DNA of 15,795 bases from the UHGV virus genome UHGV-0205859; one strand, 5' to 3'. Both the position numbers and the translations under genes were made by a program. Positions 1 to 14,807 of the stretch are shown in pieces. The DNA comes from a virus. Under the pieces are notes generated by a model, which worked only from the letters and a program-made list of their open reading frames with translations, was not told where the DNA came from and ran no database searches. Numbering within the stretch: position 1 is the stretch's first letter; the number at the start of each line of letters is the position of its first letter.

Positions 1-410
1 ACCGTGATGGTACGGGTATCTGGACCATCTGCCGTGGTGCCACAATGGTGGACGGTAAGCCTGTCGTTCCTGGCATGAAGCTGACGAAGGAAAAATGCGA
101 CCGAGTGAACGCCATCGAACGGGATAAGGCGCTGACGTGGGTGGAGAAAAACATCAAAGTGCCACTGACCGAACCGCAGAAAGCGGGCATTGCGTCATTC
201 TGTCCGTACAACATCGGGCCTTCGAAATGCTTCACCTCAACGTTTTACCGGAAACTGAACGCCGGAGACCGGAAAGGTGCATGTGCTGAAATCCGCCGGT
301 GGATATATGACGGTGGCAAAGACTGCTGTATCCGCTCAAATAATTGCTACGGTCAGGTATCCCGGCGTGACCAGGAAAGTGCGCTGGCGTGCTGGGGAAT
401 CGACAGATAA
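1..410 (+). CDS. R: Phage endolysin (lysozyme, glycoside hydrolase family 24), 5'-truncated by the window edge
   Basis: Frame 3 is open from nt 3 (RDGTGIWTICRGATMVDGKPV...) and ends at TGA 408-410. The C-terminal region (FYRKLNAGDRKGACAEIRRWIYDGGK) resembles lambdoid prophage lysozymes of the RrrD/phage 21 R type as recalled. It sits immediately upstream of Rz/Rz1. Confidence 0.85.
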   Translation, partial: RDGTGIWTICRGATMVDGKPVVPGMKLTKEKCDRVNAIERDKALTWVEKNIKVPLTEPQKAGIASFCPYNIGPSKCFTSTFYRKLNAGDRKGACAEIRRWIYDGGKDCCIRSNNCYGQVSRRDQESALACWGIDR

Positions 411-629
411 GCAGAATATTTTGCTGAAAAATGACGCCTGCTCACGCGGGCGGATAACACGAAATCCTGCGAACTGGCAAAGCGTAAGTGAATAAAAGTA
501 AAAAAACCGATTGTTAGCGCAAACGGGGTTTTGTGTTTCTGACCTTGAATAAGGCAAGGGAGAAATTATGGGTAGGGAGGTTCTTTCCCTGTGAGGAAGT
601 ATAAAAGACTCTTTCTGAGGTTGTCCATT

Positions 630-749
630 ATGAAAGGCATTGAGGTGGAGACGCCAGCAAGTCTGGATTTAACAAGAGCGGCAGCAATTGCCATTCGTAT
701 TGTGGCAATTGCTGTTCTTGTCTGGGCAATCCCGTTGGTGGTGATATGA
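630..749 (+). CDS. Hypothetical 39-aa small membrane peptide ([39 protein letters not shown]), not in the ORF track because it is under 60 aa
   Basis: ATG at 630 is preceded by GAGG at 617-620. Its stop TGA (747-749) overlaps the Rz start (ATGA at 746-749), suggesting translational coupling. Acidic N-terminus followed by a roughly 20-residue hydrophobic stretch. An alternative in-frame GTG start at 591 lies downstream of GGGAGG. Confidence 0.3.
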
Positions 750-1213
750 ATCGTGTGCTGTATGGCGTGCTTATTGTCCTGCTGCTTGGTTGTGGAGCGA
801 TGTGGCTGGCAACAAACCATTACCGTGATAACGCCATTACCTACAAAGCGCAGCGCGATAACAAAGCCAGTGAACTGGAGAAAGCGAATGCAACCATTAC
901 TGACATGCAGCAGCGCCAGCGTGATGTTGCTGCACTCGATGCAAAATATACAAAGGAGTTAGCCGATGCAAAAGCTGAAAATGAAAATCTGCGCGCTGAT
1001 GTTGCCGCTGGCCGCCGCAGCCTGCGGGTCAACGCCACCTGTGTGCCCGCCACAGATAAAACCACCGGCACCACCCGCATGGGTAATGCAACCCGTCCCC
1101 GACTGGCAGACGCCGCTCAACGGAATTATTTCACCCTCAGAGAGCGACTGATGACGATGCAGAAACAACTGGAAGGGGCACAGCTCTACATCAGTGAGCA
1201 ATGCCTCAGATAA
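746..1213 (+). CDS. Rz: Rz i-spanin (inner-membrane spanin subunit)
   Basis: 155 aa with an N-terminal transmembrane segment and a coiled-coil periplasmic domain. The [19 protein letters not shown] and [20 protein letters not shown] motifs match lambda Rz as recalled. Confidence 0.9.
966..1151 (+). CDS. Rz1: Rz1 o-spanin (outer-membrane lipoprotein), nested in the +1 frame inside Rz
   Basis: 61-aa ORF wholly inside Rz in another frame. It has a signal peptide with a lipobox-like LAAAACGS and a proline-rich mature region ([27 protein letters not shown]) closely matching lambda Rz1 as recalled. Confidence 0.85.
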
Positions 1214-2229
1214 AAACCGGTAAGGGATAATCCGCTTAAGATTTACCGGTGGCGAAGAGAGCCAAGGCATCAAATTACGCGATTACCTGTAGCAGTACAA
1301 TATATGGTTTACGTTTTCTTATTAATTCCAGATGTATGCCTGTGCGCCGTATCGTCGCCGTATTCCTGCATTAACAGAGACCGCAGCCCTTGCGGGATAC
1401 TCCTCTGCGCGAGTGTGCGGGTATAATCAAAAACGATGCACACCGGGTTTTGCTGCGAGAACTGAACGGGGCGCGTATTGTATCCTCATAATTGCCCGCC
1501 CAGTGCGATGGTGGAAGAAACCGGAATGATGAATTGTGAATGCAAAATATGGTTCTGCATTGAATAATACAGGCATTGTTTCCTGTTTACATCCAGAACA
1601 TATTTAAATATGCCTGCCTGGGACAGAGTAAAGTGGCTACGGAAAAAAGGTATGCTTCCGGATAAATGTTTTTTGATAACCAGTTTTGTCCAGATATTGT
1701 TTGATCTGTGGTTTATATAAACAGGTCTTTTTTTGGTCTGTACCGTGATCATACTATGGTTATGTGTGGTAAAGCGTATATTCCCTGTAGACAGGAAATA
1801 AAAACAATGCGAGATATCATTTTTTTTTAAGATAGTCAGTGACGGAAATAATATCGCTATTGTGTGATGAAATAAGCAAGGATATAACAGAGCTAAGCCG
1901 GTTGTTCTCTGTGGGGACACAATCTGGTGGCGATAAATCAGAATGCGTGATGTAAAGATTAAGCATGTAAAACCATGGTGTTTAACTGAAGGTTACTGTG
2001 CGGCGGGAAAATAATGAAGTGAAAAGCTAATGTCTATTTGTTATTTTCGCATGATAAAGCAGAGGTATTATTTTTTTGCTAATTTATTCTTTTGATATGT
2101 CTTATCTGTATTTGTGGTTGGTTGTAAACCTCTATTGCAACTGACATCGTCAGCAATGTTGCATACTCATTCAGGTGCAACATGGCGTGGAAGAAAGAAT
2201 ACAGGTATGAGGATATTTGAGTGGATGAT

Positions 2230-2256
2230 AAAAAAAAGCCGCAGGTGGTATGCGGC
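2230..2256 (-). terminator. Candidate rho-independent terminator on the minus strand
   Basis: Plus strand reads A8 (2230-2237) then GCCGCA (2238-2243), a 7-nt loop, and TGCGGC (2251-2256). On the minus strand this is a perfect 6-bp GC-rich stem followed by eight T residues. Confidence 0.5.
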
Positions 2257-2375
2257 ATGAAATGGCACGAATCAGTGGATATATCTTTTTTCGTTTGTAT
2301 TTTTATCTTATTTCCAGAGGTGTAATCAATTCGAAAAATACGTGAGAACAGAGCGTATATTTTCGACCTTTTTAT

Positions 2376-2432
2376 GGGTCCTCCTGGTGGGGTCGGCCTG
2401 TCCACGGGGCGGGTCGGCGCGGAAAAAGGCGC
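2376..2432. other. Candidate cos region (cosN-like GC-rich block) for cohesive-end packaging
   Basis: A sharply GC-rich island inside AT-rich DNA, about 190 bp upstream of the terminase small-subunit start, matching lambda's cosN-to-Nu1 spacing. ACGGGGCGGGTCGGCGCGG (2404-2422) resembles the lambda cos sequence ACGGGGCGGCGACCTCGCGGG as recalled. A second GGGGCGGC occurs at 2542-2549. Confidence 0.4.
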
Positions 2433-2608
2433 ATTTTTGTGATTTTATCGCCATCATCATCATGTCTGTAACTTATTGTTTTAAATTGTTTTGATGCAAA
2501 AAAGATGATGAATGTGGTTGATTTTTGTTCGACATCTTTGTGGGGCGGCATTTCTTTACAAAAAAACAGAGTCACTTCTGTTTTGCGGGTTACGTGGAGG
2601 ACGTGTAA

Positions 2609-3085
2609 ATGGACGGCGAGCTGAAAAATATGAAGTTAAATATTAATCAACTGGCATCCCTTTCAGGCCTGCACCGGCAGACTGTTACCGCAAGAATGGC
2701 AGATGTTCCTCTTGCACCAGGCAGCAATGAGAAGAAAAAACTTTATTTCCTGACGGATTTGATTACCTCGCTGCTGGAAAAGCCACCATCCACCGAAGAT
2801 GAGGAGATGAATCCACACGATCGCAAGGCATGGTATCAGTCCGAGCGCGAGCGCCTTAAATTTCAGCATGAAACTGTTCAGCTTGTGCCCGTCAGTGATG
2901 TCAGGCGGTCGTTTTCCGTCGTGGTGAAAGCCATTGTGCAGATACTGGAAACCTGGCCTGACAGGCTGGAAAGGGACAGGGGGTGGACTGCATCACAACT
3001 GAACGAAGTGCAGATCGTTGTTGATGAGATCCGTGACACGCTGGAAAAGGCAGTGATTGCCTGCTGTGATGAGGCTGATATGTGA
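2609..3085 (+). CDS. Terminase small subunit (DNA-recognition subunit, Nu1-like role)
   Basis: 158 aa, GGAGG at 2596-2600. N-terminal helix-turn-helix-like segment (LNINQLASLSGLHRQTVTARMA). Its stop overlaps the large-subunit GTG start (GTGA). Position directly upstream of a GpA-type large terminase. Confidence 0.75.
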   Translation: MDGELKNMKLNINQLASLSGLHRQTVTARMADVPLAPGSNEKKKLYFLTDLITSLLEKPPSTEDEEMNPHDRKAWYQSERERLKFQHETVQLVPVSDVRRSFSVVVKAIVQILETWPDRLERDRGWTASQLNEVQIVVDEIRDTLEKAVIACCDEADM

Positions 3086-5205
3086 ATCCGGTTAACGAGT
3101 GCCATAGCCGCGCATCCGATATCTGGCGCGAAGTGGCCTCGCTGTTTCGCCCACCCAGCCGGTTACCTGTGGTGGAAGCCATCAGGCGTTATATGCGGGT
3201 ACCACGGGGAGCCAATACATCCGGTCCGTGGGAGTCATCGCTGACGCCCTATATGATAGACCCCATTAATACATTATCAGCCCGTGAATATGACGCGGTG
3301 GTGTTTGTCGGACCTGCGCGAACGGGCAAAACCGAGGGGCTGATTGACGGCTGGATTGTGTACGGCATCATCTGTGATCCGGCTGACATGCTGGTGGTGC
3401 AGATGACTGAGACGAAGGCGCGTGAGCATTCCAGAACGCGTCTTTCCAGGACGTTTCGCCACAGTCCGGAGGTCAGTAAGCGCCTCAGTCCTTCCCGTAA
3501 CGACAACAACGTCCACGACAAAATGTTTCTTGACGGCTCATTCCTGAAAATTGGCTGGCCGTCGATCACCGTATTTTCCTCCTCGGATTACCGTCGTGTG
3601 GCGCTGACGGATTATGACCGTTTCCCTGAAAACGTGGACGGGGAAGGGGATGCCTTCACCCTGGCCTCAAAGCGTACCACCACCTTTATGTCCTCCGGGA
3701 TGACCCTGGTTGAGAGTTCACCGGGGCGGGATATTACTGACACCAAATGGCGTTGTGGTGGCGCACATGAGGCACCGCCAACAACGGGGATCATGTCACT
3801 GTATAACCGGGGAGACCGCCGCCGGTGGTACTGGCCGTGTCCGCACTGCGGGGAATATTTTCAGCCGGTGATGGATAACATGACCGGTTACCGGAATAAC
3901 CCCGATTTTGTGGCTGCCGGTCAGGCTGCCCGTCTGATGTGTCCACACTGTCGCGGGCTGATTGCCCCGGAGCAGAAACGCGAACTGAATAACATGGGGA
4001 TCTGGCTGCGGGAAGGTGAGCGGGCGGCGGCGGATGGCAGTATCACTGGAACGCCACGAAATTCCAGGATAGCGAGCTTCTGGCTGGAGGGGCCAGCTGC
4101 CGCGTTTCAGACCTGGGAACAACTGATTTTTAAGCTGCTGTCGGCAGAAGAAGAATATGAGCGAACCGGCAGTGAAGAGACCCTGAAAGCGGTGGTGAAC
4201 ACCGATATCGGACGGCCTTATCTGCCCCGTTCAGCCACGGAACAGCGCAAAAGTGAGCTGCTTGAACAGCGTGCGGAGCCGGTTCCACTGCGATGTGTGC
4301 CGGATGGCGTGCGCTTCATTGAGGCAACGGTTGACGTACAGGGCGGTAAAAACAGCCGTTTTGTGGTGCAGATCACCGGATACGGAGAGCAGGGAGAACG
4401 CTGGATTGTTGATCGCTACAACATCCGGCATTCACTGCGCAGCAGCCCCAACGGTGAAAGCCTGCCGGTTGATCCGGCTGCGTATCCGGAAGACTGGACG
4501 TTGTTGCTGACGGATGTCTTCCATAAAACCTGGCCGCTGGCTTCCGATCCGGATGTTCGTATGCGTCTTATGGCGATGGCCGTGGATACGGGCGGTGAAG
4601 CAGGGGTGACGGATAATGCCTATCGTTTCTGGCGGCAGTGCCGCCGTGACGGACTGGGTAACCGGGTGTTTCTGTTCAAGGGCGATGGCCTGCGTCGCGA
4701 CAGACTGATTAACCGTACCTTCCCGGATAACACCGGCAGAAGTGCCCGCCGTGCCAGGGCCAGTGGTGATGTTGCCCTGTGGCTGGTGCAGACCGATGCG
4801 TTTAAGGATCGGGTGAATAATGCGCTGTGGCGTGACACGCCGGGACCGAATTATATCCACTTTCCTGACTGGCTGGGGCGGTGGTTTTTCGATGAGCTGA
4901 CCTATGAGGAGCGCGGCAGTGACGGAAAATGGCGAAAGCCGGGCAGGGGCGCTAACGAAGCATTTGACCTGCTGGTCTACGCGGATGCGCTTGCCGTTCT
5001 GCATGGCTACGAAAAGATCCGCTGGCCGTCAGCACCTGACTGGGCACAACGGGAAACGTGGCTTGTCGGTCCGGAGGGGCGTTCAGATGCGACAACGCCC
5101 ACGGCGTCGTCAGGAAGGAAAGAAAAATGCCGTCACCGGCAGGAAAAACTGCGCACAGAGCGGGCAGAGGATAATCCGTGGGTAACATCAGGAGGCTGGT
5201 TGTGA
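3082..5205 (+). CDS. A: Terminase large subunit, lambda GpA family
   Basis: 707 aa with GTG start overlapping the small-subunit stop. Walker A motif GPARTGKT (aa 77-84). Size and position are typical of GpA-type terminases of cos phages. Confidence 0.9.
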   Translation: MNPVNECHSRASDIWREVASLFRPPSRLPVVEAIRRYMRVPRGANTSGPWESSLTPYMIDPINTLSAREYDAVVFVGPARTGKTEGLIDGWIVYGIICDPADMLVVQMTETKAREHSRTRLSRTFRHSPEVSKRLSPSRNDNNVHDKMFLDGSFLKIGWPSITVFSSSDYRRVALTDYDRFPENVDGEGDAFTLASKRTTTFMSSGMTLVESSPGRDITDTKWRCGGAHEAPPTTGIMSLYNRGDRRRWYWPCPHCGEYFQPVMDNMTGYRNNPDFVAAGQAARLMCPHCRGLIAPEQKRELNNMGIWLREGERAAADGSITGTPRNSRIASFWLEGPAAAFQTWEQLIFKLLSAEEEYERTGSEETLKAVVNTDIGRPYLPRSATEQRKSELLEQRAEPVPLRCVPDGVRFIEATVDVQGGKNSRFVVQITGYGEQGERWIVDRYNIRHSLRSSPNGESLPVDPAAYPEDWTLLLTDVFHKTWPLASDPDVRMRLMAMAVDTGGEAGVTDNAYRFWRQCRRDGLGNRVFLFKGDGLRRDRLINRTFPDNTGRSARRARASGDVALWLVQTDAFKDRVNNALWRDTPGPNYIHFPDWLGRWFFDELTYEERGSDGKWRKPGRGANEAFDLLVYADALAVLHGYEKIRWPSAPDWAQRETWLVGPEGRSDATTPTASSGRKEKCRHRQEKLRTERAEDNPWVTSGGWL

Positions 5206-5414
5206 GTATTGATGATGTCAGGAACATGATACAGCGGTATCGCGATGCGGAAATGGCGGTACTGGAGGGAAAATCTGTCACGTTTAACGGGCAGCAACTG
5301 ACGCTGGAAAGTCTGTCACAGATCCGCGCCGGTCGTCAGGAGTGGGAGCGAAGACTTACGGCGATGGTGAACCGCAGACGCGGGGAGCCCGGGTTTAAAC
5401 TGGCGAGGTTCTGA
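5202..5414 (+). CDS. W: Head-tail joining protein gpW
   Basis: 70 aa from GTG 5202, with AGGAGG at 5190-5195 and overlap with the terminase stop (GTGA). The C-terminal RRRGEPGF resembles lambda W RRRGPAGF as recalled. The ORF-track start at 5178 is an upstream in-frame GTG without a Shine-Dalgarno sequence. Confidence 0.8.
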   Translation: MSIDDVRNMIQRYRDAEMAVLEGKSVTFNGQQLTLESLSQIRAGRQEWERRLTAMVNRRRGEPGFKLARF

Positions 5415-6919
5415 TGGCGATTAGCGATGATGTGATTGGTTTTTTCTCGCCCGGCTGGAAAGCAGCGCGATTACGCTCAAGGGCGTTAATTATGGCCTAT
5501 GAGGCCGTGAAACCCACCAGGACGCATAAAGCACGCCGGGAAAACCGTTCTGCCGATCAGCTCAGTAAATACGGTGCGGTTTCCCTTCGGGAGCAGGCCC
5601 GCTTTCTGGATATCAATCATGACCTGGTGATAGGCGTGTTTGACAAGCTGGAGGAGCGGGTGATTGGTGCGAAGGGGATCACCGTTGAGCCTAATCCGGT
5701 GATGAAAAACGGGGAGATTGCGGCGGAGCTGGCAGCGGATATCCGGCGGTTGTGGGCAGAATGGTCTGTCAGTCCGGATGTGACCGGACAGTACACCCGT
5801 CCCATGCTCGAACGCCTGTTACTGCGTACCTGGCTGCGTGACGGGGAGGTGTTTGCGCAGATGGTCAGTGGTGCGGCAAACGGTCTTAAGCGGTCTGCCG
5901 GTGTGCCTTTCTGGCTTGAGGCGATGGAGCCGGATTTTGTGCCCATGCGCAGTGATGAGTCTGCCGGACTGAATCAAGGCGTTTTTCTGGATGAGTGGGG
6001 GAGGCCGAAAAAATATCTGGTTTACAAAAATTATCCGGTTTCCGGGATACAGAGTGATACCAAAGAGATCGCCGCAGACAAAATGGTGCATCTGAAATTC
6101 ACCCGCCGCCTGCACCAGACGCGTGGTGCGTCCATGTTGTCCGGTGTGATGGTGCGTATCAGTGCGCTTAAGGAATATGAAGATGCCGAACTGACAGCGG
6201 CGCGTATTGCTGCGGCGCTGGGGCTGTATATCCGTAAGGGGGATGGACAGGATTACGACGATCAGGGAGCAGACAAAAAAGAAGAGCGGGAAGTGCATAT
6301 CACCCCGGGCATTATCTATGACGATTTGCGTAAGGGTGAGGATATCGGCATGGTCAAATCCGACCGTCCTAATCCAAATCTTGAAAATTTTCGTAATGGT
6401 CAGTTGCGTGCGGTGGCTGCAGGCAGTCGTCTGAGCTTTTCCAGTACCGCACGCAACTACAATGGCACCTACAGTTCACAGCGGCAGGAGCTGGTCGAGT
6501 CCACCGACGGTTACCTTATCCTGCAGGACTGCTTTATTGGCGCGGTAACCCGCCCGGTGTACCGTGCATGGCTGAATATGGTGGTTGCTGCCGGTCTGCT
6601 GAAAATCCCGTCTTGCCTGGATATGAAGACGTTATATAACGCGACATATTCAGGTCCGGTGATGCCGTGGATAGATCCGGTTAAGGAGGCTGAAGCCTGG
6701 CGGATACAGATCCGGGGTGGTGCCGCAACGGAATCCGACTGGGTACGTGCCGGCGGACGTCATCCGGATGAGGTTAAACGTCGCCGCAAGGCTGAAATTG
6801 ATGAAAACTGCAGACTGGGGCTGGTCTTTGATACTGACCCCGTCAACGACAAAGGAGGCAACAGTGCCGGAACTGAACGACAGCGTCAACAGGCCACCGA
6901 CAGCCAGCATGAAGAATAA
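5414..6919 (+). CDS. B: Portal protein (lambda gpB family)
   Basis: 501 aa; ATG overlaps the W stop (TGATG). Size and position between W and the capsid gene fit a portal; weak motif resemblance to lambda B. Confidence 0.85.
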   Translation: MAISDDVIGFFSPGWKAARLRSRALIMAYEAVKPTRTHKARRENRSADQLSKYGAVSLREQARFLDINHDLVIGVFDKLEERVIGAKGITVEPNPVMKNGEIAAELAADIRRLWAEWSVSPDVTGQYTRPMLERLLLRTWLRDGEVFAQMVSGAANGLKRSAGVPFWLEAMEPDFVPMRSDESAGLNQGVFLDEWGRPKKYLVYKNYPVSGIQSDTKEIAADKMVHLKFTRRLHQTRGASMLSGVMVRISALKEYEDAELTAARIAAALGLYIRKGDGQDYDDQGADKKEEREVHITPGIIYDDLRKGEDIGMVKSDRPNPNLENFRNGQLRAVAAGSRLSFSSTARNYNGTYSSQRQELVESTDGYLILQDCFIGAVTRPVYRAWLNMVVAAGLLKIPSCLDMKTLYNATYSGPVMPWIDPVKEAEAWRIQIRGGAATESDWVRAGGRHPDEVKRRRKAEIDENCRLGLVFDTDPVNDKGGNSAGTERQRQQATDSQHEE

Positions 6920-8888
6920 ATCCTGGTTCAGGATGCAGGCTGGGGAGCCGGGTGACGCGGATATTTATATTTATGACGAGATTGGTTTCTGGGGAGTTAC
7001 CGCGAAGCAGTTTGTCTGCGATCTGAATGCTCTGGGTGATATCACCCACATTAATCTCCATATCAACTCACCGGGTGGCGATGTCTTTGAAGGCATCGCC
7101 ATTTTTAATGCCCTGAAAAATCAGGGGGCGACCATTACCGTGTATGTGGATGGCGTTGCCGCATCGATGGCATCCGTGATTGCGATGGCCGGTGATACGG
7201 TCATTATGCCGGAAAATGCTTTCATGATGATCCATAAGCCATGGGGTTTCAGTGGGGGGGATGCTGAGGATATGCGCAGTTATGCCGATCTGCTGGATAA
7301 AGTCGAATCGGTACTGTTGCCAGCCTATGCGCAAAAAACAGGAAAAACCACCGATGAAATTGCCGCCATGCTGGCGGATGAGACCTGGATGTCAGGTGCC
7401 GAGTGTCTGGCACACGGATTTGCTGACCAGGTGACGCCAGCCGTTAAGGCAATGGCATGTATTCAGTCAAAACGTACAGAGGAATTTAAAAAGATGCCGG
7501 AATCCATCCGAAACATGATTACTCCGCCACGCAACAGTGCCCCGCGTGATACCACAGTGACAATCCCTGCACCGGCGGTAACAGAACCATCACCGGTACC
7601 GGCAGTGTCTGATGAGGAGACCATTCGCGCTGGTGTCCTGGCTGAGCAGAAAGCCCGCATGTCAGGCATTAACGATCTGTTTGCCATGTTTGGCGGTCGC
7701 TATCAGACGCTTCAGGCACAGTGCGTGGCCGATCCTGACTGTTCGCTGGAAATGGCCCGTGAACGTCTGCTGAATGAAATGGGTAAGGAATCCTCGCCGA
7801 CCAACAAAAACACACCGGCCCATATTTATGCCGGAAACGGTAATTTTGTTGGAGACGGGATCCGCAAGGCGCTGATGGCCCGCGCCGGATTTGAGACTAC
7901 GGAGAAGGATAATGCCTATAACGGTATGACCCTGCGTGAATGCGCCCGTATGTCACTGACAGAGCGGGGGATCGGGGTGGCCAGTTATAACCCCATGCAG
8001 ATGGTGGGGCTGGCGCTGACGCACAGTACCTCAGATTTTGGCAATATTCTGCTGGATGTGTCGAATAAGGGGTTAATCCAGGGCTGGGAGGAATCAGAAG
8101 AAACCTTCCAGAAATGGACCCGCAAAGGTCGCCTGTCTGACTTCAAAACGGCATACCGTGTGGGGATGGGGGGATTTGGCTCTCTGCGTCAGGTGCGGGA
8201 AGGGGCAGAGTACAAGTACATCACCACCTCAGATCGTAAGGAGACCATTGCACTGGCGACCTACGGGGAAATTTTCTCCATCACCCGTCAGGCCATTATC
8301 AATGATGACCTGAATATGCTGGTTGATGTCCCGATGAAGATGGGGCGTGCCGCGAAAGCGACGATTGGTGATTTGGTCTACAAGGTGTTAACGGATAACC
8401 CGAAACTGTCAGACGGTAAGGCGTTGTTCCATGCCGATCACAAGAATATTGCCACGGGCGGGATTTCCGTTTCGGGGCTGGATGCGGCACGTCAGATGAT
8501 GCGCCTGCAGAAAGAGGGCGATCGTGCGCTGAATATCCGTCCGGCCTTTATGCTGGTACCGGTGGCGCTGGAGACGGTGGCAAACCAGACCATCAAGTCG
8601 GCCAGTGTGAAAGGGGCGGATGCAAACGCCGGTGTCATTAACCCGATCCAGAACTTTGCCGAAGTGATTGCGGAAGCTCGTCTTGATGCGGCAGATCCGA
8701 AAACCTGGTACCTGGCTGCGGCACAGGGGACCGACACCATTGAAGTGGCCTGGCTTGATGGTGTGGACACTCCCTACATTGACCAGCAGGAAGGCTTCAC
8801 CACTGACGGTATCGCCACAAAAATCCGTATCGATGCCGGTGTGGCACCGCTTGACTGGCGCGGACTGGTGCGTTCAGCCGCTGCCTGA
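6909..8888 (+). CDS. Fused prohead protease (ClpP/S49-like), scaffold-like linker and major capsid protein
   Basis: N-terminal region carries ClpP-like protease motifs (DIYIYDEIGFWGV, INSPGGDVFEGIAIFNAL, ASMASVIAMAGD), then a Pro/Ala/Glu-rich linker, then a roughly 330-aa C-terminal capsid-like domain. Start ATG 6909 is chosen just upstream of the protease motifs; ATG 6933 and the ORF-track start 6717 are alternatives. Confidence 0.8.
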   Translation: MKNKSWFRMQAGEPGDADIYIYDEIGFWGVTAKQFVCDLNALGDITHINLHINSPGGDVFEGIAIFNALKNQGATITVYVDGVAASMASVIAMAGDTVIMPENAFMMIHKPWGFSGGDAEDMRSYADLLDKVESVLLPAYAQKTGKTTDEIAAMLADETWMSGAECLAHGFADQVTPAVKAMACIQSKRTEEFKKMPESIRNMITPPRNSAPRDTTVTIPAPAVTEPSPVPAVSDEETIRAGVLAEQKARMSGINDLFAMFGGRYQTLQAQCVADPDCSLEMARERLLNEMGKESSPTNKNTPAHIYAGNGNFVGDGIRKALMARAGFETTEKDNAYNGMTLRECARMSLTERGIGVASYNPMQMVGLALTHSTSDFGNILLDVSNKGLIQGWEESEETFQKWTRKGRLSDFKTAYRVGMGGFGSLRQVREGAEYKYITTSDRKETIALATYGEIFSITRQAIINDDLNMLVDVPMKMGRAAKATIGDLVYKVLTDNPKLSDGKALFHADHKNIATGGISVSGLDAARQMMRLQKEGDRALNIRPAFMLVPVALETVANQTIKSASVKGADANAGVINPIQNFAEVIAEARLDAADPKTWYLAAAQGTDTIEVAWLDGVDTPYIDQQEGFTTDGIATKIRIDAGVAPLDWRGLVRSAAA

Positions 8889-8910
8889 TAAGCACTGCGT
8901 CTCTATCACT

Positions 8911-8929
8911 GCCCGAAAGGGCTTTTTTT
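8911..8929 (+). terminator. Candidate intrinsic terminator (attenuator) downstream of the capsid gene
   Basis: GCCC-GAAA-GGGC hairpin with a GNRA loop (8911-8922) followed by T7 (8923-8929), 23 nt after the capsid stop. Confidence 0.45.
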
Positions 8930-8974
8930 ATGCCTGAAAACAGCCCCGTCGGGGCTGTCCGGAGATACAGCATT

Positions 8975-9301
8975 ATGGCTAAAAATTTTGTACAGGACGG
9001 CACCACCATTGAACTGGTGAATGCCGGGGATCAAAGCATTCTTAGCGGTGCCGCAGTGGTGGTCGGCAGCATGGTGGCGGTGGCCATTACCGATATTCCT
9101 GCCGGGGAGACCGGTGACGGGTTCGCCGAAGGCGTGTTCCTGCTGCCAAAACAGTCTGCCGATGATATTCAGGCCGGTATGGTTGTTTATCTGAAGGACG
9201 GGATTGTGCAGCCTGCCGCAGACGGCGCAGTGGCGGCGGGGATGGCATGGGAGCATGCGCCGTCAGGCAGCACCACGGTGGCGGTCAAAATCAATGCCTG
9301 A
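8975..9301 (+). CDS. Putative head decoration protein (DUF2190-like small capsid-associated protein)
   Basis: 108 aa from ATG 8975, with GGAG at 8961-8964. Gly/Ala/Val-rich small protein directly downstream of the capsid gene. The ORF-track start at 8930 lacks an RBS and overlaps the terminator T-run. Confidence 0.5.
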   Translation: MAKNFVQDGTTIELVNAGDQSILSGAAVVVGSMVAVAITDIPAGETGDGFAEGVFLLPKQSADDIQAGMVVYLKDGIVQPAADGAVAAGMAWEHAPSGSTTVAVKINA

Positions 9302-9575
9302 GCTGTTTGCGCGAATGTGCCACCGGATGGACATGGCGACAGTGCGCATGATGGGGAAAATGGCGGAGATTAACGGTGTCAGTTATGACGTGATACCGGA
9401 GTATGAGTCCGCTGATATGGGCGCGCTTTCCGGCAGTCAGTTGTCTCTGGTGGTGTTTTCAGACCAGTACCGGCCTGCCCGTGATGATGAGGTTGTGTTT
9501 GACGGGCGTTCACTGGTAGTGACCCGTTATGACACATACAACGGTAAACCCCGTATTTTTGTCGAACAGGAATAA
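9294..9575 (+). CDS. FII: Head-tail joining / tail attachment protein, gpFII-like
   Basis: 93 aa from ATG 9294, overlapping the upstream stop. The pattern ELFARM...RMMG...SLVVFSDQY...DDEVVFDG parallels lambda FII as recalled. The ORF-track start at 9204 lies inside the upstream gene. Confidence 0.65.
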   Translation: MPELFARMCHRMDMATVRMMGKMAEINGVSYDVIPEYESADMGALSGSQLSLVVFSDQYRPARDDEVVFDGRSLVVTRYDTYNGKPRIFVEQE

Positions 9576-9577
9576 GT

Positions 9578-10204
9578 ATGGCGATAAAAGGTCTGGCGCA
9601 GGCCATGAAAAATCTGGATGCGATTGACCACCGTGCCGTTCCCCTGGCTGCCGCCACGACGCTTAACCGTGTGGCGGAGTCCATCATCGCGAAAACGGCC
9701 TCTTCGGTTGCCAGGGAGCTGGTGGTCCCACGCCGTCTTATCCGTGAGCGTATCCGCCTGCAACAGGCCAGCGCGGACAGGGTTTATGCGAAGGTCATCA
9801 TCAACACCGGTAATCTGCCCGCCATAAAACTGGGGACGGCCAGCGCGCGGCTTTCCCGCAGAAAGCGGCGAAAGAAAGGCGAGCGATCGGTCACGAAAGG
9901 CGGTGGCAGCGTGCTGATTGTCGGGAAACGGCGGATCCCGAATGCCTTTATTACCCGGCTGGAAAATGGCCGGTGGCATGTGATGCAGCGTATGCCGTGG
10001 GCGTCGTCGTCAACCGGTGTTGACCGTAAGGGCAGGCCAGCGCGTTATCGTCTGCCGGTTGAAGTGGTGAAAATACCGACGGCCAGACCGCTGGCGGAAA
10101 CCTTTGAGCGGGAACGTGACCGGATGTACCGGGAAAAATTACCGGAACAGATGATGAAAGCCATGACATATCAGTTACGTCTTGTTCTGAAACGAAAACT
10201 GTAA
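9578..10204 (+). CDS. Z: Tail completion protein gpZ
   Basis: 208 aa; the N-terminus MAIKGL and motifs RRKRRKKGERS, KGGGSVL and NGRWHVMQR closely match lambda Z as recalled. Confidence 0.85.
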   Translation: MAIKGLAQAMKNLDAIDHRAVPLAAATTLNRVAESIIAKTASSVARELVVPRRLIRERIRLQQASADRVYAKVIINTGNLPAIKLGTASARLSRRKRRKKGERSVTKGGGSVLIVGKRRIPNAFITRLENGRWHVMQRMPWASSSTGVDRKGRPARYRLPVEVVKIPTARPLAETFERERDRMYREKLPEQMMKAMTYQLRLVLKRKL

Positions 10205-10213
10205 GGAGGTGGA

Positions 10214-10612
10214 ATGAAACATCGGGAAATACGGGCGGCAGTTCTGTCTGCCCTGAAGGCAAATATTACTGAGCAGGTGACCTGGTTTGACGGGCGACCT
10301 GCTTTTATTGACGAGCTGGAGCTTCCGGCAGTGGCGGTCTACCTGACTGATGCGTCGGCAGCTGACGAGTTCGTTGATGAGGAAACCTGGGAGGCGGTAC
10401 TGCATATCGAGGTGTTTCTCAGGGCGAAAGAAACGGATTCGGCACTGGATATGTGGATGGAAGAAAAAATTTTTCCGGTGCTGGAGGGCGTGCCCGGTCT
10501 CAGTGCACTACTGCTGAAAATGAACCTTCAGGGGTACGACTACCGCCGCGATGATGAGTTCATGATGTGGGGATCGGCAGATCTCCGGTGGAATATTACC
10601 TACGAAATGTGA
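10214..10612 (+). CDS. U: Tail terminator protein gpU
   Basis: 132 aa with AGGAGG RBS. MKH.E.RAAVL...FDGRPA...PAVAVYLT...LHIEVFL...GYDYRRDD...ADL...ITYEM matches lambda U as recalled. Confidence 0.9.
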
Positions 10613-10619
10613 GGACGCT

Positions 10620-11378
10620 ATGCCAACACCTAATCCCCTTGAGCCGGTAAAAGGCTCAGGCACCACACTCTGGCTTTATTCCGGGAATGGTGATGCCTAT
10701 GCGAATCCGTTGTCTGATGATGACTGGACGCGACTGGCGAAAATCAAGGATCTGACACCGGGAGAAATGACGGCAGAGTCCTACGACGATAACTACCTTG
10801 ACGACGATGATGCTGACTGGATATCCACCGGACAGGGACAGAAATCAGCCGGTGATACCAGTTTTACCCTGGCCTGGAAACCCGGCGAAGCCGGTCAGCA
10901 GGCGTTGTTGCGGTGGTTTGATGAGGGCGATTCCAGAGCCTATAAAATCCGTTTTCCCAATGGCACGGTTGATGTCTTCCGTGGCTGGGTCAGCAGTATC
11001 GGTAAAGCCGTCACCGCAAAAGAAGTGATCACCCGCACGGTGAAAGTCACCAATATCGGACGCCCGTCGCTGGCGGAGGACAGCGGGACCATCACGCCGG
11101 TGACGGGCATCACCGTCACACCGGCAATCGCTTCGGTCGGCGTGGGCCAGAATATATCACTGACGGTGGCCGTTCAGCCGGATAACGCGTCTGATAAAAC
11201 CTTCCGGGTGTCATCTGACCACAACAGTGTGGCGACAGTGACCATGAAGGACAGCATCATAACGGTGAAAGGGGTGGCAAAAGGCACTGCACTTATTCCT
11301 GTCATGAGCAATGGCGGCGATTTTGCTGCAGTAGCCACAGTAACGGTCACCGACCCTGCAGCACAACCCACCACGTAA
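10620..11378 (+). CDS. V: Major tail tube protein gpV with C-terminal Ig-like (Big_2-type) domain
   Basis: 252 aa. [68 protein letters not shown] are near-identical to lambda V as recalled. The C-terminal ~90 aa is a Thr/Val-rich beta-type domain. Confidence 0.9.
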
Positions 11379-11396
11379 TTATCCCGGAGTGAATTT

Positions 11397-11795
11397 ATGT
11401 TTCTGAAAACTGAACCGTTTGAATATAACGGGCAGACTGTCACGCTCAGCGAACTGTCCGCCCTGCAGCGCCTCGAGTACCTGGCCTGGGTGAAGGAGAA
11501 GGAAGAGCAGCGGGGGGAGGGGGGCAGCGAGCAGCAGGCGCTTGATGATCTCATCCGGGAAGGCGCGCTGCTGGTTGCGATGTCGCTCTGGCATAACCAT
11601 GAACTGAAAGGCACATTGCCCTCCCTGCGTCAGGAGACAGACAGGATCATGCAGGAGGTGCTGACCACCTGGCCTGTGGAGGCCATTGCCGCAGGCAGAA
11701 ATGTGGTGGCCAGACTGAGCGGTATGTCTGCACCTGTGGATGAACCGTCAGGGAAAGAACCGGTAACGGCAAAAAAGCGTACGAAGGAGAGCTGA
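11397..11795 (+). CDS. G: Tail assembly chaperone gpG
   Basis: 132 aa. MFLKTEPFEYNGQTVTLSELSALQRLEYLA and VAMSLWHNH and QEVLTTWP match lambda G as recalled. Confidence 0.9.
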   Translation: MFLKTEPFEYNGQTVTLSELSALQRLEYLAWVKEKEEQRGEGGSEQQALDDLIREGALLVAMSLWHNHELKGTLPSLRQETDRIMQEVLTTWPVEAIAAGRNVVARLSGMSAPVDEPSGKEPVTAKKRTKES

Positions 11796-12211
11796 TTTTT
11801 GTACTGAAACTGGCGCGCGAGATGAGCCGACCTGACTGGCGCGCCATGCTTGCCGGAATGTCATCAACCGAATATACCGACTGGCGTCATTTTTACCGCA
11901 CGCATTTTTTTCAGGATGTGCAGCTGGACATGCATTTTGCCGGGATGACGTATGCCGTCCTCAGCCTGTTTTTTGCCGATCCGGAGATGCATCCGTCTGA
12001 CTTCAGTCTGCTGCGTGAGCCGGAAAAAGGGGAAAAAGAGGATGATGATGCGCTGATGCAAAAGGCAACAGGGCTTGCCGGCGGTGTCCGTTATGGTCCT
12101 GATGGTGTGGTTGTGGCGTCTGACAGTCTGACGCCCTCCGGGCATGAAGATGACGTCATACTGATGACGGTATCAGAAGGTATCGCAGGAGGTGTCCGCT
12201 ATGTCGGGTAA
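11397..12211 (+). CDS. GT: Tail assembly chaperone G-T fusion, produced by programmed -1 ribosomal frameshift near 11771-11777
   Basis: The -1 frame is open from 11744 and continues through the G stop. It encodes ...ELIFVLKLAREMSRPDWRAMLAGMSSTEY..., matching lambda gpT as recalled. A slippery heptamer A_AAA_AAG is in correct register in the G frame. Confidence 0.8.
11771..11777 (+). promoter_or_regulatory. Slippery heptamer A_AAA_AAG for the G to G-T -1 frameshift
   Basis: In G's frame the codons are gcA AAA AAG (A at 11771, AAA 11772-74, AAG 11775-77). The heptamer lies inside the 11744-11795 window where both frames are open. Confidence 0.7.
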
Positions 12212-14807
12212 TTTTGCAGATCTGACAGCAATTCTTACCCTGGATTCCACCCGTTTTTCTGAAGAAATGGGGCGGGTGAAAAAATCGCTGGGCGAAACCA
12301 GTTCACTGGCAGACACGATGTCAGGAAAGGTCAGCCAGTCCTTAAAAAAACCGGCAGAGGTGATTGAACAGAGTCTGAGCCGTCAGGCTGTTGCCGCGCA
12401 GAAGGCGGGGATATCCATCGGGCAGTATAAAGCTGCCATGCGGACACTGCCCGCCCAGTTCACGGATATTGCCACTCAGCTTGCCGGTGGTCAGAGTCCG
12501 TGGTTGATCCTGCTGCAGCAGGGCGGGCAGATTAAGGACTCCTTTGGTGGTCTTGTCCCGATGTTCAGGAGCCTTGCTGGTGCGATCACACTACCTGCTG
12601 TCGGGATCACATCACTGGTCGCAGCGACCGGTGCGCTGGCGTATGCCTGGTACCAGGGGGATTCAGTCCTGTCTGAATTCAATAAAACCCTGGTTCTTTC
12701 CGGTAATCAGTCCGGACTGACCGCCGATCGCATGCTGACTCTCTCCAGAGCCGGACAGGCAGCAGGGCTGACGTTTAACCAGACCAGCGAGTCTCTGACG
12801 GCGCTGGTAAATGCCGGTGTGCGTGGGGGAGAACAGTTTGACGCCATCAGCCAGAGTGTGGCGCGTTTTTCGTCTGCATCCGGCGTGGAGGTGGACAAAG
12901 TCGCTGAGGCCTTCGGGAAGCTGACCACTGACCCGACCTCGGGGCTGACGGCGATGGCGCACCAGTTCCATAACGTGACGGCGGAGCAGATTGCGTATGT
13001 GGCTCAGTTGCAGCGTTCCGGCGATGAGGCCGGAGCGTTACAGGCCGCGCACGAAGCCGCCACCAGAGGATTCGATGAGCAGACCCGCCGCCTGAAAGCG
13101 AATATGGGCACGCTGGAGACCTGGGCGGATAAGGTCGGCAGTGCGTTCAAATCCATGTGGGATGCAGTGCTGGATATCGGGCGTCCTGAGTCATCTGCAG
13201 AAATGCTGGATAAGGCACAGCAGGCATTCGATGAGGCGGATAAAAAATGGCAATGGTATCAGAGTCGCAGCCACCGTCGCGGAAAAACATCCTCCTTCCG
13301 TGCCAATCTTCAGGGCGCATGGGATGACCGCGAAAACGCCCGCCTCGGTCTTTCAGCGGCGACACTGCAGGCAGACCTGGAAAAAGCCAGCGAAATGGCG
13401 GCACGGGATCGGGCCGTATCGGAGGCGTCACGGCTGAAATATACCGAAGAGGCGCAGAAGGCTTACGAACGCCTGCAGTCTCCACTGGAGAAATATACCG
13501 CCCGTCAGGAGGAACTGAATAAGGCACTGAAAGACGGGAAAATCCTGCAGGCGGATTACAACACGCTGATGGCGGCGGCGAAAAAGGACTATGAGTCAAC
13601 GCTGAAAAAGCCGAAACAGTCTGGCGTGAAAGTGTCTGCAGGCGAGCGTCAGGAGGACAACTCCCGTACAGAACTGCTGACGCTGCAGACTGAACTCAGG
13701 ACACTCCAGGCGCACGCTGGTGCGAATGAGAAAATCAGTCAGCAGCGCCGGGATTTGTGGAAGGCAGAAAGTCAGTACGCGGTACTGGCGGAGGCGGCAC
13801 AACGTCGCCAGCTGTCCGTACAGGAGAAATCCCTGCTGGCGCATAAAGACGAAACGCTGGAATACAAACGCCAGCTGGCTGATCTGGGCGACAAGGTTGA
13901 ATACCAGAAACGCCTGAATGAGCTGGCGGATCAGGCGGAGAAATTTGCACAGCAGCAGAGTGCAAAACAGGCTGCCATCAGTGCAAAAGCCCGTGGGCTG
14001 ACAGACCGGCAGGCGCAGCGGGAGTCGGAAGAACAACGGTTGCGCGAGGTGTATGGCGACAATCCGCAGGCGCTGGCGAAGGCAACCGGTGCGCTGAAAC
14101 AGACATGGGCTGCTGAAGACCAGCTGAGTGGCAGCTGGACAGCCGGACTTAAATCGGGCTGGAGCCAGTGGGCTGAAAGTGCGATGGACAGTTTTTCGCA
14201 GGTGAAAAGTGTTGCCACGCAGACCTTCGACGGGATTGCGCAGAATATGGCGGCGATGCTGACCGGCAGTGAGCAGAACTGGCGCAGCTTTACCCGTTCC
14301 GTGCTGTCCATGATGACGGAAATTCTGCTTAAGCAGGCCATGGTGGGGATTGTCGGGAGTATCGGCAGTGCCATTGGCGGAGCCATTGGTGGTGCATCTG
14401 CTTCCACAGGAACCGCCATTCAGGCTGCGGCGGCGAACTTCCATTTTGCAACCGGAGGATTTACGGGAACCGGAGGCAAATATGAGCCGGCGGGGATTGT
14501 TCACCGTGGTGAGTTTGTGTTCACGAAGGAGGCAACCAGCCGGATTGGTGTGGGGAATCTGTACCGTCTGATGCGGGGATATGCGGATGGGGGCTATGTG
14601 GGTGGTGCCGGAAGTCAGGCTCAGATGCGGCGGGCAGACGTCATTAATTTTAATCAGAATAACAATGTGGTGATTCAGAATGACGGTATCAACGGACAGG
14701 CCGGTCCGCAGATGATGAGGGCGGTATATGACATGGCCCGTAAGGGTGCCCGTGATGAACTCCAGGCACAGATGCGTGACGGCGGACTGTTCTCCGGAGG
14801 TGGCTGA
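12201..14807 (+). CDS. H: Tail tape measure protein gpH
   Basis: About 868 aa from ATG 12201, with AGGAGG at 12186-12191. Long stretches match lambda H as recalled (for example QYKAAMR.LPAQFTD.ATQLAGGQSPWLILLQQGG and the C-terminal RDGGLFSGGG). The ORF-track start is an upstream GTG at 12192. Confidence 0.9.
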   Translation: MSGNFADLTAILTLDSTRFSEEMGRVKKSLGETSSLADTMSGKVSQSLKKPAEVIEQSLSRQAVAAQKAGISIGQYKAAMRTLPAQFTDIATQLAGGQSPWLILLQQGGQIKDSFGGLVPMFRSLAGAITLPAVGITSLVAATGALAYAWYQGDSVLSEFNKTLVLSGNQSGLTADRMLTLSRAGQAAGLTFNQTSESLTALVNAGVRGGEQFDAISQSVARFSSASGVEVDKVAEAFGKLTTDPTSGLTAMAHQFHNVTAEQIAYVAQLQRSGDEAGALQAAHEAATRGFDEQTRRLKANMGTLETWADKVGSAFKSMWDAVLDIGRPESSAEMLDKAQQAFDEADKKWQWYQSRSHRRGKTSSFRANLQGAWDDRENARLGLSAATLQADLEKASEMAARDRAVSEASRLKYTEEAQKAYERLQSPLEKYTARQEELNKALKDGKILQADYNTLMAAAKKDYESTLKKPKQSGVKVSAGERQEDNSRTELLTLQTELRTLQAHAGANEKISQQRRDLWKAESQYAVLAEAAQRRQLSVQEKSLLAHKDETLEYKRQLADLGDKVEYQKRLNELADQAEKFAQQQSAKQAAISAKARGLTDRQAQRESEEQRLREVYGDNPQALAKATGALKQTWAAEDQLSGSWTAGLKSGWSQWAESAMDSFSQVKSVATQTFDGIAQNMAAMLTGSEQNWRSFTRSVLSMMTEILLKQAMVGIVGSIGSAIGGAIGGASASTGTAIQAAAANFHFATGGFTGTGGKYEPAGIVHRGEFVFTKEATSRIGVGNLYRLMRGYADGGYVGGAGSQAQMRRADVINFNQNNNVVIQNDGINGQAGPQMMRAVYDMARKGARDELQAQMRDGGLFSGGG

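Follow-up and report, generated by a model that had tools for sequence, protein, structure and literature searches.

An AT-rich interval between Rz and cos in virus genome UHGV-0205859 probably holds a moron cassette with a frameshifted DUF1398 gene

Organization of the region between Rz and the terminase genes

We analyzed a 15,795-nt stretch of the virus genome UHGV-0205859 (hereafter the window), which starts inside a lysozyme gene. As presented in Table 1, the interval under study is bordered on the left by the Rz spanin gene and on the right by a GC-rich, cos-like segment located 5' of the small terminase gene, in agreement with an earlier note on this DNA, which had placed the interval between the lysis cassette and cos. 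This cos-like segment aligned with the lambda right end, ...ACGGGTCCTTTCCGG...GGTTACG, and with GGGCGGCGACCT in strain 317. The right-flank block, from 2369 onward, is common to Stx2 phages, VT1-Sakai, Fels-1 and mEp460. The three open reading frames (ORFs) reported by the earlier note for the interval, 1332-1529 on the plus strand and 1486-1920 and 2079-2405 on the minus strand, were all recovered. With regard to the flanking genes, a small "hypothetical protein" similar to the product of ORF 591-749 is annotated at the same place in the E. coli strains M8, A39 and ECOR29, and among the complete E. coli genomes of the collection searched, none exceeded 96.4% identity to the head genes of the window.

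Table 1. Features of the region from the lysis genes to the terminase genes (window coordinates).
Feature	Position	Strand	Evidence or remark
52-aa ORF	591-749	+	Between the lysozyme gene and Rz; match to PHROG 4493 (function unknown), E=2e-21
Rz spanin	746-1213	+	Pfam Phage_lysis, E=1.7e-46; left flank
Rz1	966-1151		Embedded in Rz; from the ORF list
Post-Rz spacer	1214-1338		Typical of the phage lineage; not part of the insert
Conserved non-coding element	1339-1527		About 190 bp; right end supplies the last 14 DUF1398 codons
DUF1398-family gene, frameshifted	1486-1966	-	Pfam PF07166; 159 codons once one A is removed
C-terminal ORF, 144 aa, GTG start	1486-1920	-	In the DUF1398 frame at 1819-1486
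N-terminal fragment ORF, 49 aa, MLNLYITHSD...DYLKKK-stop	1817-1966	-	First 48 residues match orthologues
Frameshift homopolymer: coding-strand A9 (T9 on plus)	1820-1828	-	Alignment with orthologues
AT-rich putative moron cassette	1526-2368		Extra DNA relative to an "empty-site" prophage (L131)
Sigma-70 promoter-like site, TAGACA-17 nt-TATTTT	2008-2036	-	Consensus scan, 9/12
Predicted intrinsic terminator, GCCGCA-TACCACC-TGCGGC then T8	2230-2256	-	Hairpin 2256-2238, T8 2237-2230
cosQ-like GGGTCC	2376	+	Right flank; aligned with the lambda right end
cosN-like 12-mer GGGCGGGTCGGC	2407-2418	+	Right flank; aligned with lambda cosN
DUF1441/PHROG-141 small terminase	2609-3085		Pfam/PHROG match
Large terminase	3082-5205		3' of the small terminase

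An AT-rich insertion between the post-Rz sequence and cos

The GC content was 0.494 at 1214-1527, 0.361 at 1528-2368 and 0.542 over the whole window, and the lowest-GC 841-nt segment of all 15.8 kb starts at 1531. The AT-richness attributed to the interval by the earlier note thus holds for 1528-2368 and does not extend to 1214-1527. To define the boundaries, the window was compared with an "empty-site" prophage of E. coli S19-651 (L131), which has the same DUF1441 terminase and is devoid of the DUF1398 gene described below. Positions 1101-1525 of the window aligned with 2402-2817 of this locus at 82% identity, and positions 2369-2700 with 2845-3172 at 89% identity; between the two aligned blocks lie 27 bp in the prophage versus 843 bp in the window. 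The collinearity of the two sequences around such a difference in length indicates that 1526-2368 is an inserted moron cassette. The inserted segment matches the AT-rich trough, is absent between the same flanks in the S19-651 prophage, and differs in GC content from the surrounding phage genes. Like lambda bor in the moron concept (Juhala/Hendrix), it is extra, compositionally distinct DNA placed between landmarks of the late operon, with a promoter-like site of its own; it differs in having no strong terminator downstream of the gene, the one strong terminator being upstream. On these comparisons, the AT-rich segment is probably an accessory-gene moron cassette located between conserved post-Rz sequence and cos.

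A megablast search of complete E. coli genomes returned the block 1343-2375 (1.03 kb) in three strains from mice, M8, M3 and M1, with 96-98% identity, and in 16 further genomes with 82-83% identity. The M3 and M1 prophages also share the terminase type of the window.

The cassette carries a gene of the DUF1398 family

The earlier note had seen no convincing ORF in the interval, and the 144-aa ORF on the minus strand contradicts this view. In 1000 mononucleotide shuffles of the interval, the longest ORF measured 69 ± 18 aa and 0.3% of the shuffles reached 144, and the ORF product matched Pfam DUF1398 (PF07166) with E=8e-21 and 74.7 bits, for a cutoff of 22. The GTG start and the first ~33 codons of this ORF are an out-of-frame read-through, and the ORF covers a gene of 159 codons except for its N-terminal quarter. 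After removal of one A, the repaired 159-aa protein scored 74.5 bits against Pfam DUF1398, again above the cutoff, and was 96% identical to the cluster P0001, "DUF1398 family protein [Escherichia coli]". The description of all three ORFs as chance frames was consequently wrong for 1486-1920; it stood for 1332-1529 and 2079-2405, which are not conserved as coding sequences. Inspection by eye revealed no Shine-Dalgarno-like motif before the ATG at 1966 or the GTG at 1920, as the earlier note had already remarked.

In RefSeq, a CDS for a "DUF1398 family protein" is annotated under the block match in every matching E. coli genome, and a single intact CDS of 159-177 aa occupies the same place in 18 of the 19 E. 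coli genomes with the cassette. The reading frame is intact in the E. coli prophages of M8, M3, 317 and A39. In the six pairwise comparisons of these four intact genes, we obtained a dN/dS of 0.15-0.17 (Nei-Gojobori), with dS up to 0.55, and the changes in the N-terminal ~23 residues specific to the subfamily were mostly synonymous. The DUF1398 gene therefore codes for a protein under purifying selection in the relatives. The earlier note had looked to database searches for an intact conserved gene in the interval; a conserved gene was indeed found, which is not intact in this copy.

At the structural level, the M8 orthologue matched the sequence of PDB 2HH8 (the NMR structure of YdfO) with E=1.5e-7, and a family profile search of the PDB returned 2HH8 as the sole match (E=1e-65). 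Two AlphaFold2 runs yielded unusable models (pLDDT 35 and 49). The subfamily of the window comprises 11 clusters at 90% identity and 1 at 50%, whose named members are all from E. coli; its next relatives are at most 32% identical, and a search with YdfO gave 1560 clusters. We also observed that the conserved post-Rz element provides the last 14 codons of the gene (...IIPVSSTIAP..., 1486-1527, minus strand). The DUF1398 proteins range from 159 to 177 aa because strains differ in where the stop falls, and the C-terminal tail is therefore recruited flanking sequence.

The remaining candidates of the cassette were rejected. ORF 2079-2405 (-) had no family match, crosses cosQ, and has its frame broken by indels in M8; the terminator at 2256-2230 lies inside it, which argues against this ORF being real. 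ORF 2114-2260 (+), at the position of ybcW/lambdap79, showed no similarity, and its start is not conserved in strain 317. Relics of bor, ybcW/lambdap79, ylcI/ynfO, gnsB or ynfN were not detected, all tblastn matches having E>0.04; the best Bor match (E=0.058) covers 40 aa inside the DUF1398 frame and is noise. Searches with the PADLOC defence models gave no match, those with NCBIfam no meaningful match, and no tRNA or tmRNA was found.

The DUF1398 gene of the window is interrupted by a +1 frameshift

Alignment with the orthologues placed the frameshift in a run of nine A. The cassettes of M8, M3 and M1, in which the DUF1398 family proteins WP_073535245.1 and WP_073520605.1 are annotated and whose DNA is 96-98% identical to that of the window, carry A8 and an intact 159-aa ORF, and the runs of 317, ECOR29 and A39 are shorter or interrupted (AAAAAAACAT in 317, AAAAGAAAT in A39). 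On the coding strand, the window reads ...GAC TAT CTT AAA AAA AAA TGA, with a stop after 49 codons, which explains why the gene shows as the two ORFs 1817-1966 and 1486-1920 (-). The first helix of the DUF1398 domain lies on the N-terminal fragment and the remainder of the domain in another frame, and no uninterrupted frame spans the whole domain in this copy. Relative to M8, 6 differences in the window copy are non-synonymous and 3 are synonymous. One of the former is P155L, at a proline that is invariant in a 25-sequence family alignment and whose underlying base is identical, by column counts, in all the 88 other copies of the post-Rz element. These differences, P155L included, suggest a relaxed constraint in the window copy, the counts being small. 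From the alignment, the expansion from A8 to A9 would stop translation after 49 codons, and this copy has most likely become a pseudogene recently. The "decayed moron" proposed in the earlier note was thus essentially right: the cassette is absent from a collinear prophage and its gene is broken by a +1 frameshift.

Alternatively, the gene could be intact in the real phage and encode a functional DUF1398 moron, the ninth A being a homopolymer error of sequencing or assembly. We searched a pattern allowing T8 or T9 in IMG/VR, in the GTDB species genomes and in a metagenome collection. IMG/VR gave two contigs, with T8 only, the GTDB species genomes gave no match to the pattern, and the metagenome collection gave one T9 contig (ENA ERZ1034901 NODE_1330, 17,313 bp, coverage 18.46). 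This contig is 100% identical, in reverse complement, to positions 1707-13520 of the window and is its own source, and therefore brings no independent confirmation of A9. The error reading is in line with this single occurrence of A9, with the A8 of the closest relatives of the window gene, and with a remaining frame that is open and 96% identical to P0001. However, the name of the source contig indicates a short-read SPAdes assembly with ~18x coverage, and consensus errors in 9-mer homopolymers are uncommon in such assemblies at this depth. The copy of the window has, besides the ninth A, the unique change of the invariant Pro155 and the 6:3 ratio of non-synonymous to synonymous differences with M8. 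Moreover, the complete genome of ECOR29 (L128, 2586-3120) carries, in another A8 tract of the gene, a +1 that arose independently, and RefSeq annotates the gene there as two CDSs; such mutations therefore really occur in the DUF1398 gene. We thus consider an artefact unlikely, and the extra A probably biological. A-tract frameshifts recur in this AT-rich gene, in the window and independently in ECOR29, and automatic annotation will therefore split the gene or drop it.

The A9 run could also be a working switch, in which RNA-polymerase slippage or slipped-strand A8/A9 phase variation would still yield some full-length DUF1398 protein and allow a conditional expression. Runs of at least nine A reportedly cause transcriptional slippage in E. 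coli. The loss of one A from the mRNA would restore ...LKKND... exactly, and the mutability of these tracts is indicated by +1 events that arose independently in two distinct A8 tracts among ~20 genomes. By contrast, the orthologues mostly interrupt the A run, as in 317 and A39, and the tract is therefore not conserved as a switch; the loss of the invariant proline, suggesting relaxed constraint, also speaks against it. Overall, a switch appears highly improbable, and a recent pseudogene remains our preferred reading of this copy.

Signals inside the cassette

The sigma-70 promoter-like site of the minus strand lies ~40 nt upstream of the DUF1398 ATG and was the only one found there on this strand. 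Both hexamers fall in nearly invariant islands across six diverged cassettes, the upstream region being otherwise 70-80% identical. The consensus and its conservation suggest that this predicted promoter (2036-2008) may be used for the DUF1398 gene. Downstream of the DUF1398 stop, the only terminator candidate was a weak, unconvincing 5-bp hairpin (1395-1381).

The strong terminator at 2256-2230 is within the cassette, upstream of the DUF1398 promoter-like site, and no transcription unit that it might end is apparent. M8, M3, 317 and ECOR29 keep it, 317 and ECOR29 with a stem lengthened by an indel, whereas A39 lacks it; the folding z-score of the terminator region was -1.24. About 65 nt upstream of the terminator end, a weak conserved TTGATT-16-GATAAA/TATAAA was noticed by eye, which would give an RNA of ~65 nt (~2293-2230). 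This site is devoid of the T at position 6 of the -10 hexamer and was not flagged by the consensus scan.

A widespread non-coding element follows Rz

The part of the interval that precedes the cassette consists of two segments. The spacer at 1214-1338 follows Rz in E. coli S19-651 (L131) and recurs in 16 complete genomes of E. coli at 76% identity, whereas 89 IMG/VR copies lack it; its fold was unremarkable (z=+0.22). The element at 1339-1527 was detected in 2635 of the 5426 complete E. coli genomes, with as many as 9 places in one genome. It was also detected in 298 phage records, among which those of Stx phages number in the hundreds, and was not annotated in the records inspected. It is located directly after Rz in many lambdoid prophages, is 85-97% conserved (also at 3001-3185 of L003), and has sharp boundaries across the 89 IMG/VR copies. 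Part of the element (1309-1453) recurs in lambda, at 46833-46977, and in DLP12; it separates bor from the DUF1398 gene there.

The element carries frame-breaking indels of 4, 5 and 17 nt, different frames are open in different variants, and codon periodicity was absent (variable columns by phase 13/16/10). ORF 1332-1529 (+), whose ATG lies in the lineage-specific spacer, is therefore not a gene. It matches PHROG 6954, labelled "Rz-like spanin", and this match probably reflects ORFs called at the element in some phage records.

The earlier note had also proposed a regulatory or RNA-coding region. In its present form, this reading would make the interval mainly non-coding, with the post-Rz element or a small RNA ending at the 2256-2230 terminator as its content. 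In favor of this reading, the non-coding element has sharp limits, a conservation of 85-97% and a very wide distribution, and a strong terminator with no gene to terminate is kept in diverged cassettes, with the weak promoter-like motif upstream of it. On the other hand, the Rfam 15 scan of 400-3200 on both strands gave no match at E<=1, and hence no known structured RNA. The folding z-scores (MFE) of the element, +1.33, +1.08, -0.26 and +0.15, were not unusual, and its alifold consensus structure contained no compensatory pairs, the pair statistics being equal to those of shuffles. The small-RNA promoter-like site has the imperfect -10 hexamer described above, and our literature search for small RNAs downstream of Rz found nothing. 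Even if such RNA elements are real, the interval would still consist chiefly of the DUF1398 gene. A mainly non-coding interval is thus distinctly unlikely, and the moron cassette remains the preferred explanation.

There is, nevertheless, a small chance that the post-Rz element itself is more than a homogenised linker and serves lambdoid phages as a functional site at the RNA or DNA level; it may for example be a processing or stability element of the late transcript, or a recombination hot spot. A slippage switch at A9 in the DUF1398 gene may be less likely than a functional post-Rz element, and this element is the only thread here that might repay experiment.

Counterparts in lambda and E. 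coli K-12 and a proposed role

The interval between Rz and cos in lambda had been described as carrying bor. This gene is indeed present (46459-46752, complement), between Rz and the segment similar to 1309-1453, and is missing from the window; the description overlooked lambdap78 (NP_597781, 47042-47575, complement), a DUF1398 gene of the same slot. Like the gene of the window, lambdap78 lies on the strand opposite to the late operon, matches Pfam DUF1398 (E=2e-46), and has the segment homologous to 1309-1453 on its 3' side. The two proteins are 26% identical over 101 residues, and the lambda gene is intact, unlike that of the window. In addition, lambda has lambdap79 upstream of lambdap78, which is lacking in the window. 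In E. coli K-12, ybcV (DLP12) and ydfO (Qin) are likewise DUF1398 genes on the strand opposite to the late genes, between an Rz homologue and nohD/nohA, and their products are 22-25% identical to that of the window gene. In contrast to YbcV and YdfO, the subfamily of the window possesses an extra N-terminus of ~23 residues and a tail from the post-Rz element, and it was seen only in a few E. coli, as a single cluster at 50% identity, in contrast to the 1560 clusters of the YdfO search. Since slot, strand and family are shared, the gene of the window is thus a divergent counterpart of lambdap78, ybcV and ydfO.

Several reports deal with the expression of the K-12 members. The gene ybcV is strongly derepressed when T4 MotB disturbs H-NS silencing (PMC7827196), the ydfO promoter is induced by an ionic liquid and overexpression of YdfO reportedly increases resistance to oxidative stress (both PMC4077768), and ydfO responds to DicC (PMC11430063). 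Beyond such expression changes and one overexpression phenotype, our literature search found nothing on the function of DUF1398. The family is labelled "head protein" in PHROG 413 and "envelope protein" in some other sources, and we found no paper testing either label.

Overall, the AT-rich interval is likely a DUF1398 moron cassette whose gene is frameshifted in this copy. An accessory cassette would have been inserted between the post-Rz sequence and cos, oriented against the late operon, and would encode a small, divergent protein of the lambdap78, YbcV and YdfO family. In the intact relatives, transcription would start in the lysogen from the cassette's own sigma-70-type promoter (~2036-2008, minus strand), and H-NS would probably keep expression low, as in other AT-rich prophage morons. 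Promoter activity and H-NS control are suggested by the consensus, its conservation and the K-12 literature, which concerns distant paralogues (22-26% identity). By analogy with these paralogues, the DUF1398 protein may act on host physiology under stress and not on phage assembly. We thus favor a lysogen-expressed, H-NS-silenced accessory protein that would modulate the stress physiology of the host, and that would be inactivated here.

The finding is explained by known biology: family and slot are both known, and RefSeq already annotates the gene in near-identical prophages. Apart from annotation, its implications are few: the gap between Rz and cos is where morons usually sit, with a DUF1398 gene here as in lambda, DLP12 and Qin, and AT-rich ORFs of this slot that lie on the opposite strand and are devoid of a Shine-Dalgarno motif should not be dismissed by eye. 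As a minor observation, the genomes with this DUF1398 subfamily come mostly from rodent or other wild mammal hosts (mouse, Zyzomys, kangaroo rat, marmot, dog).
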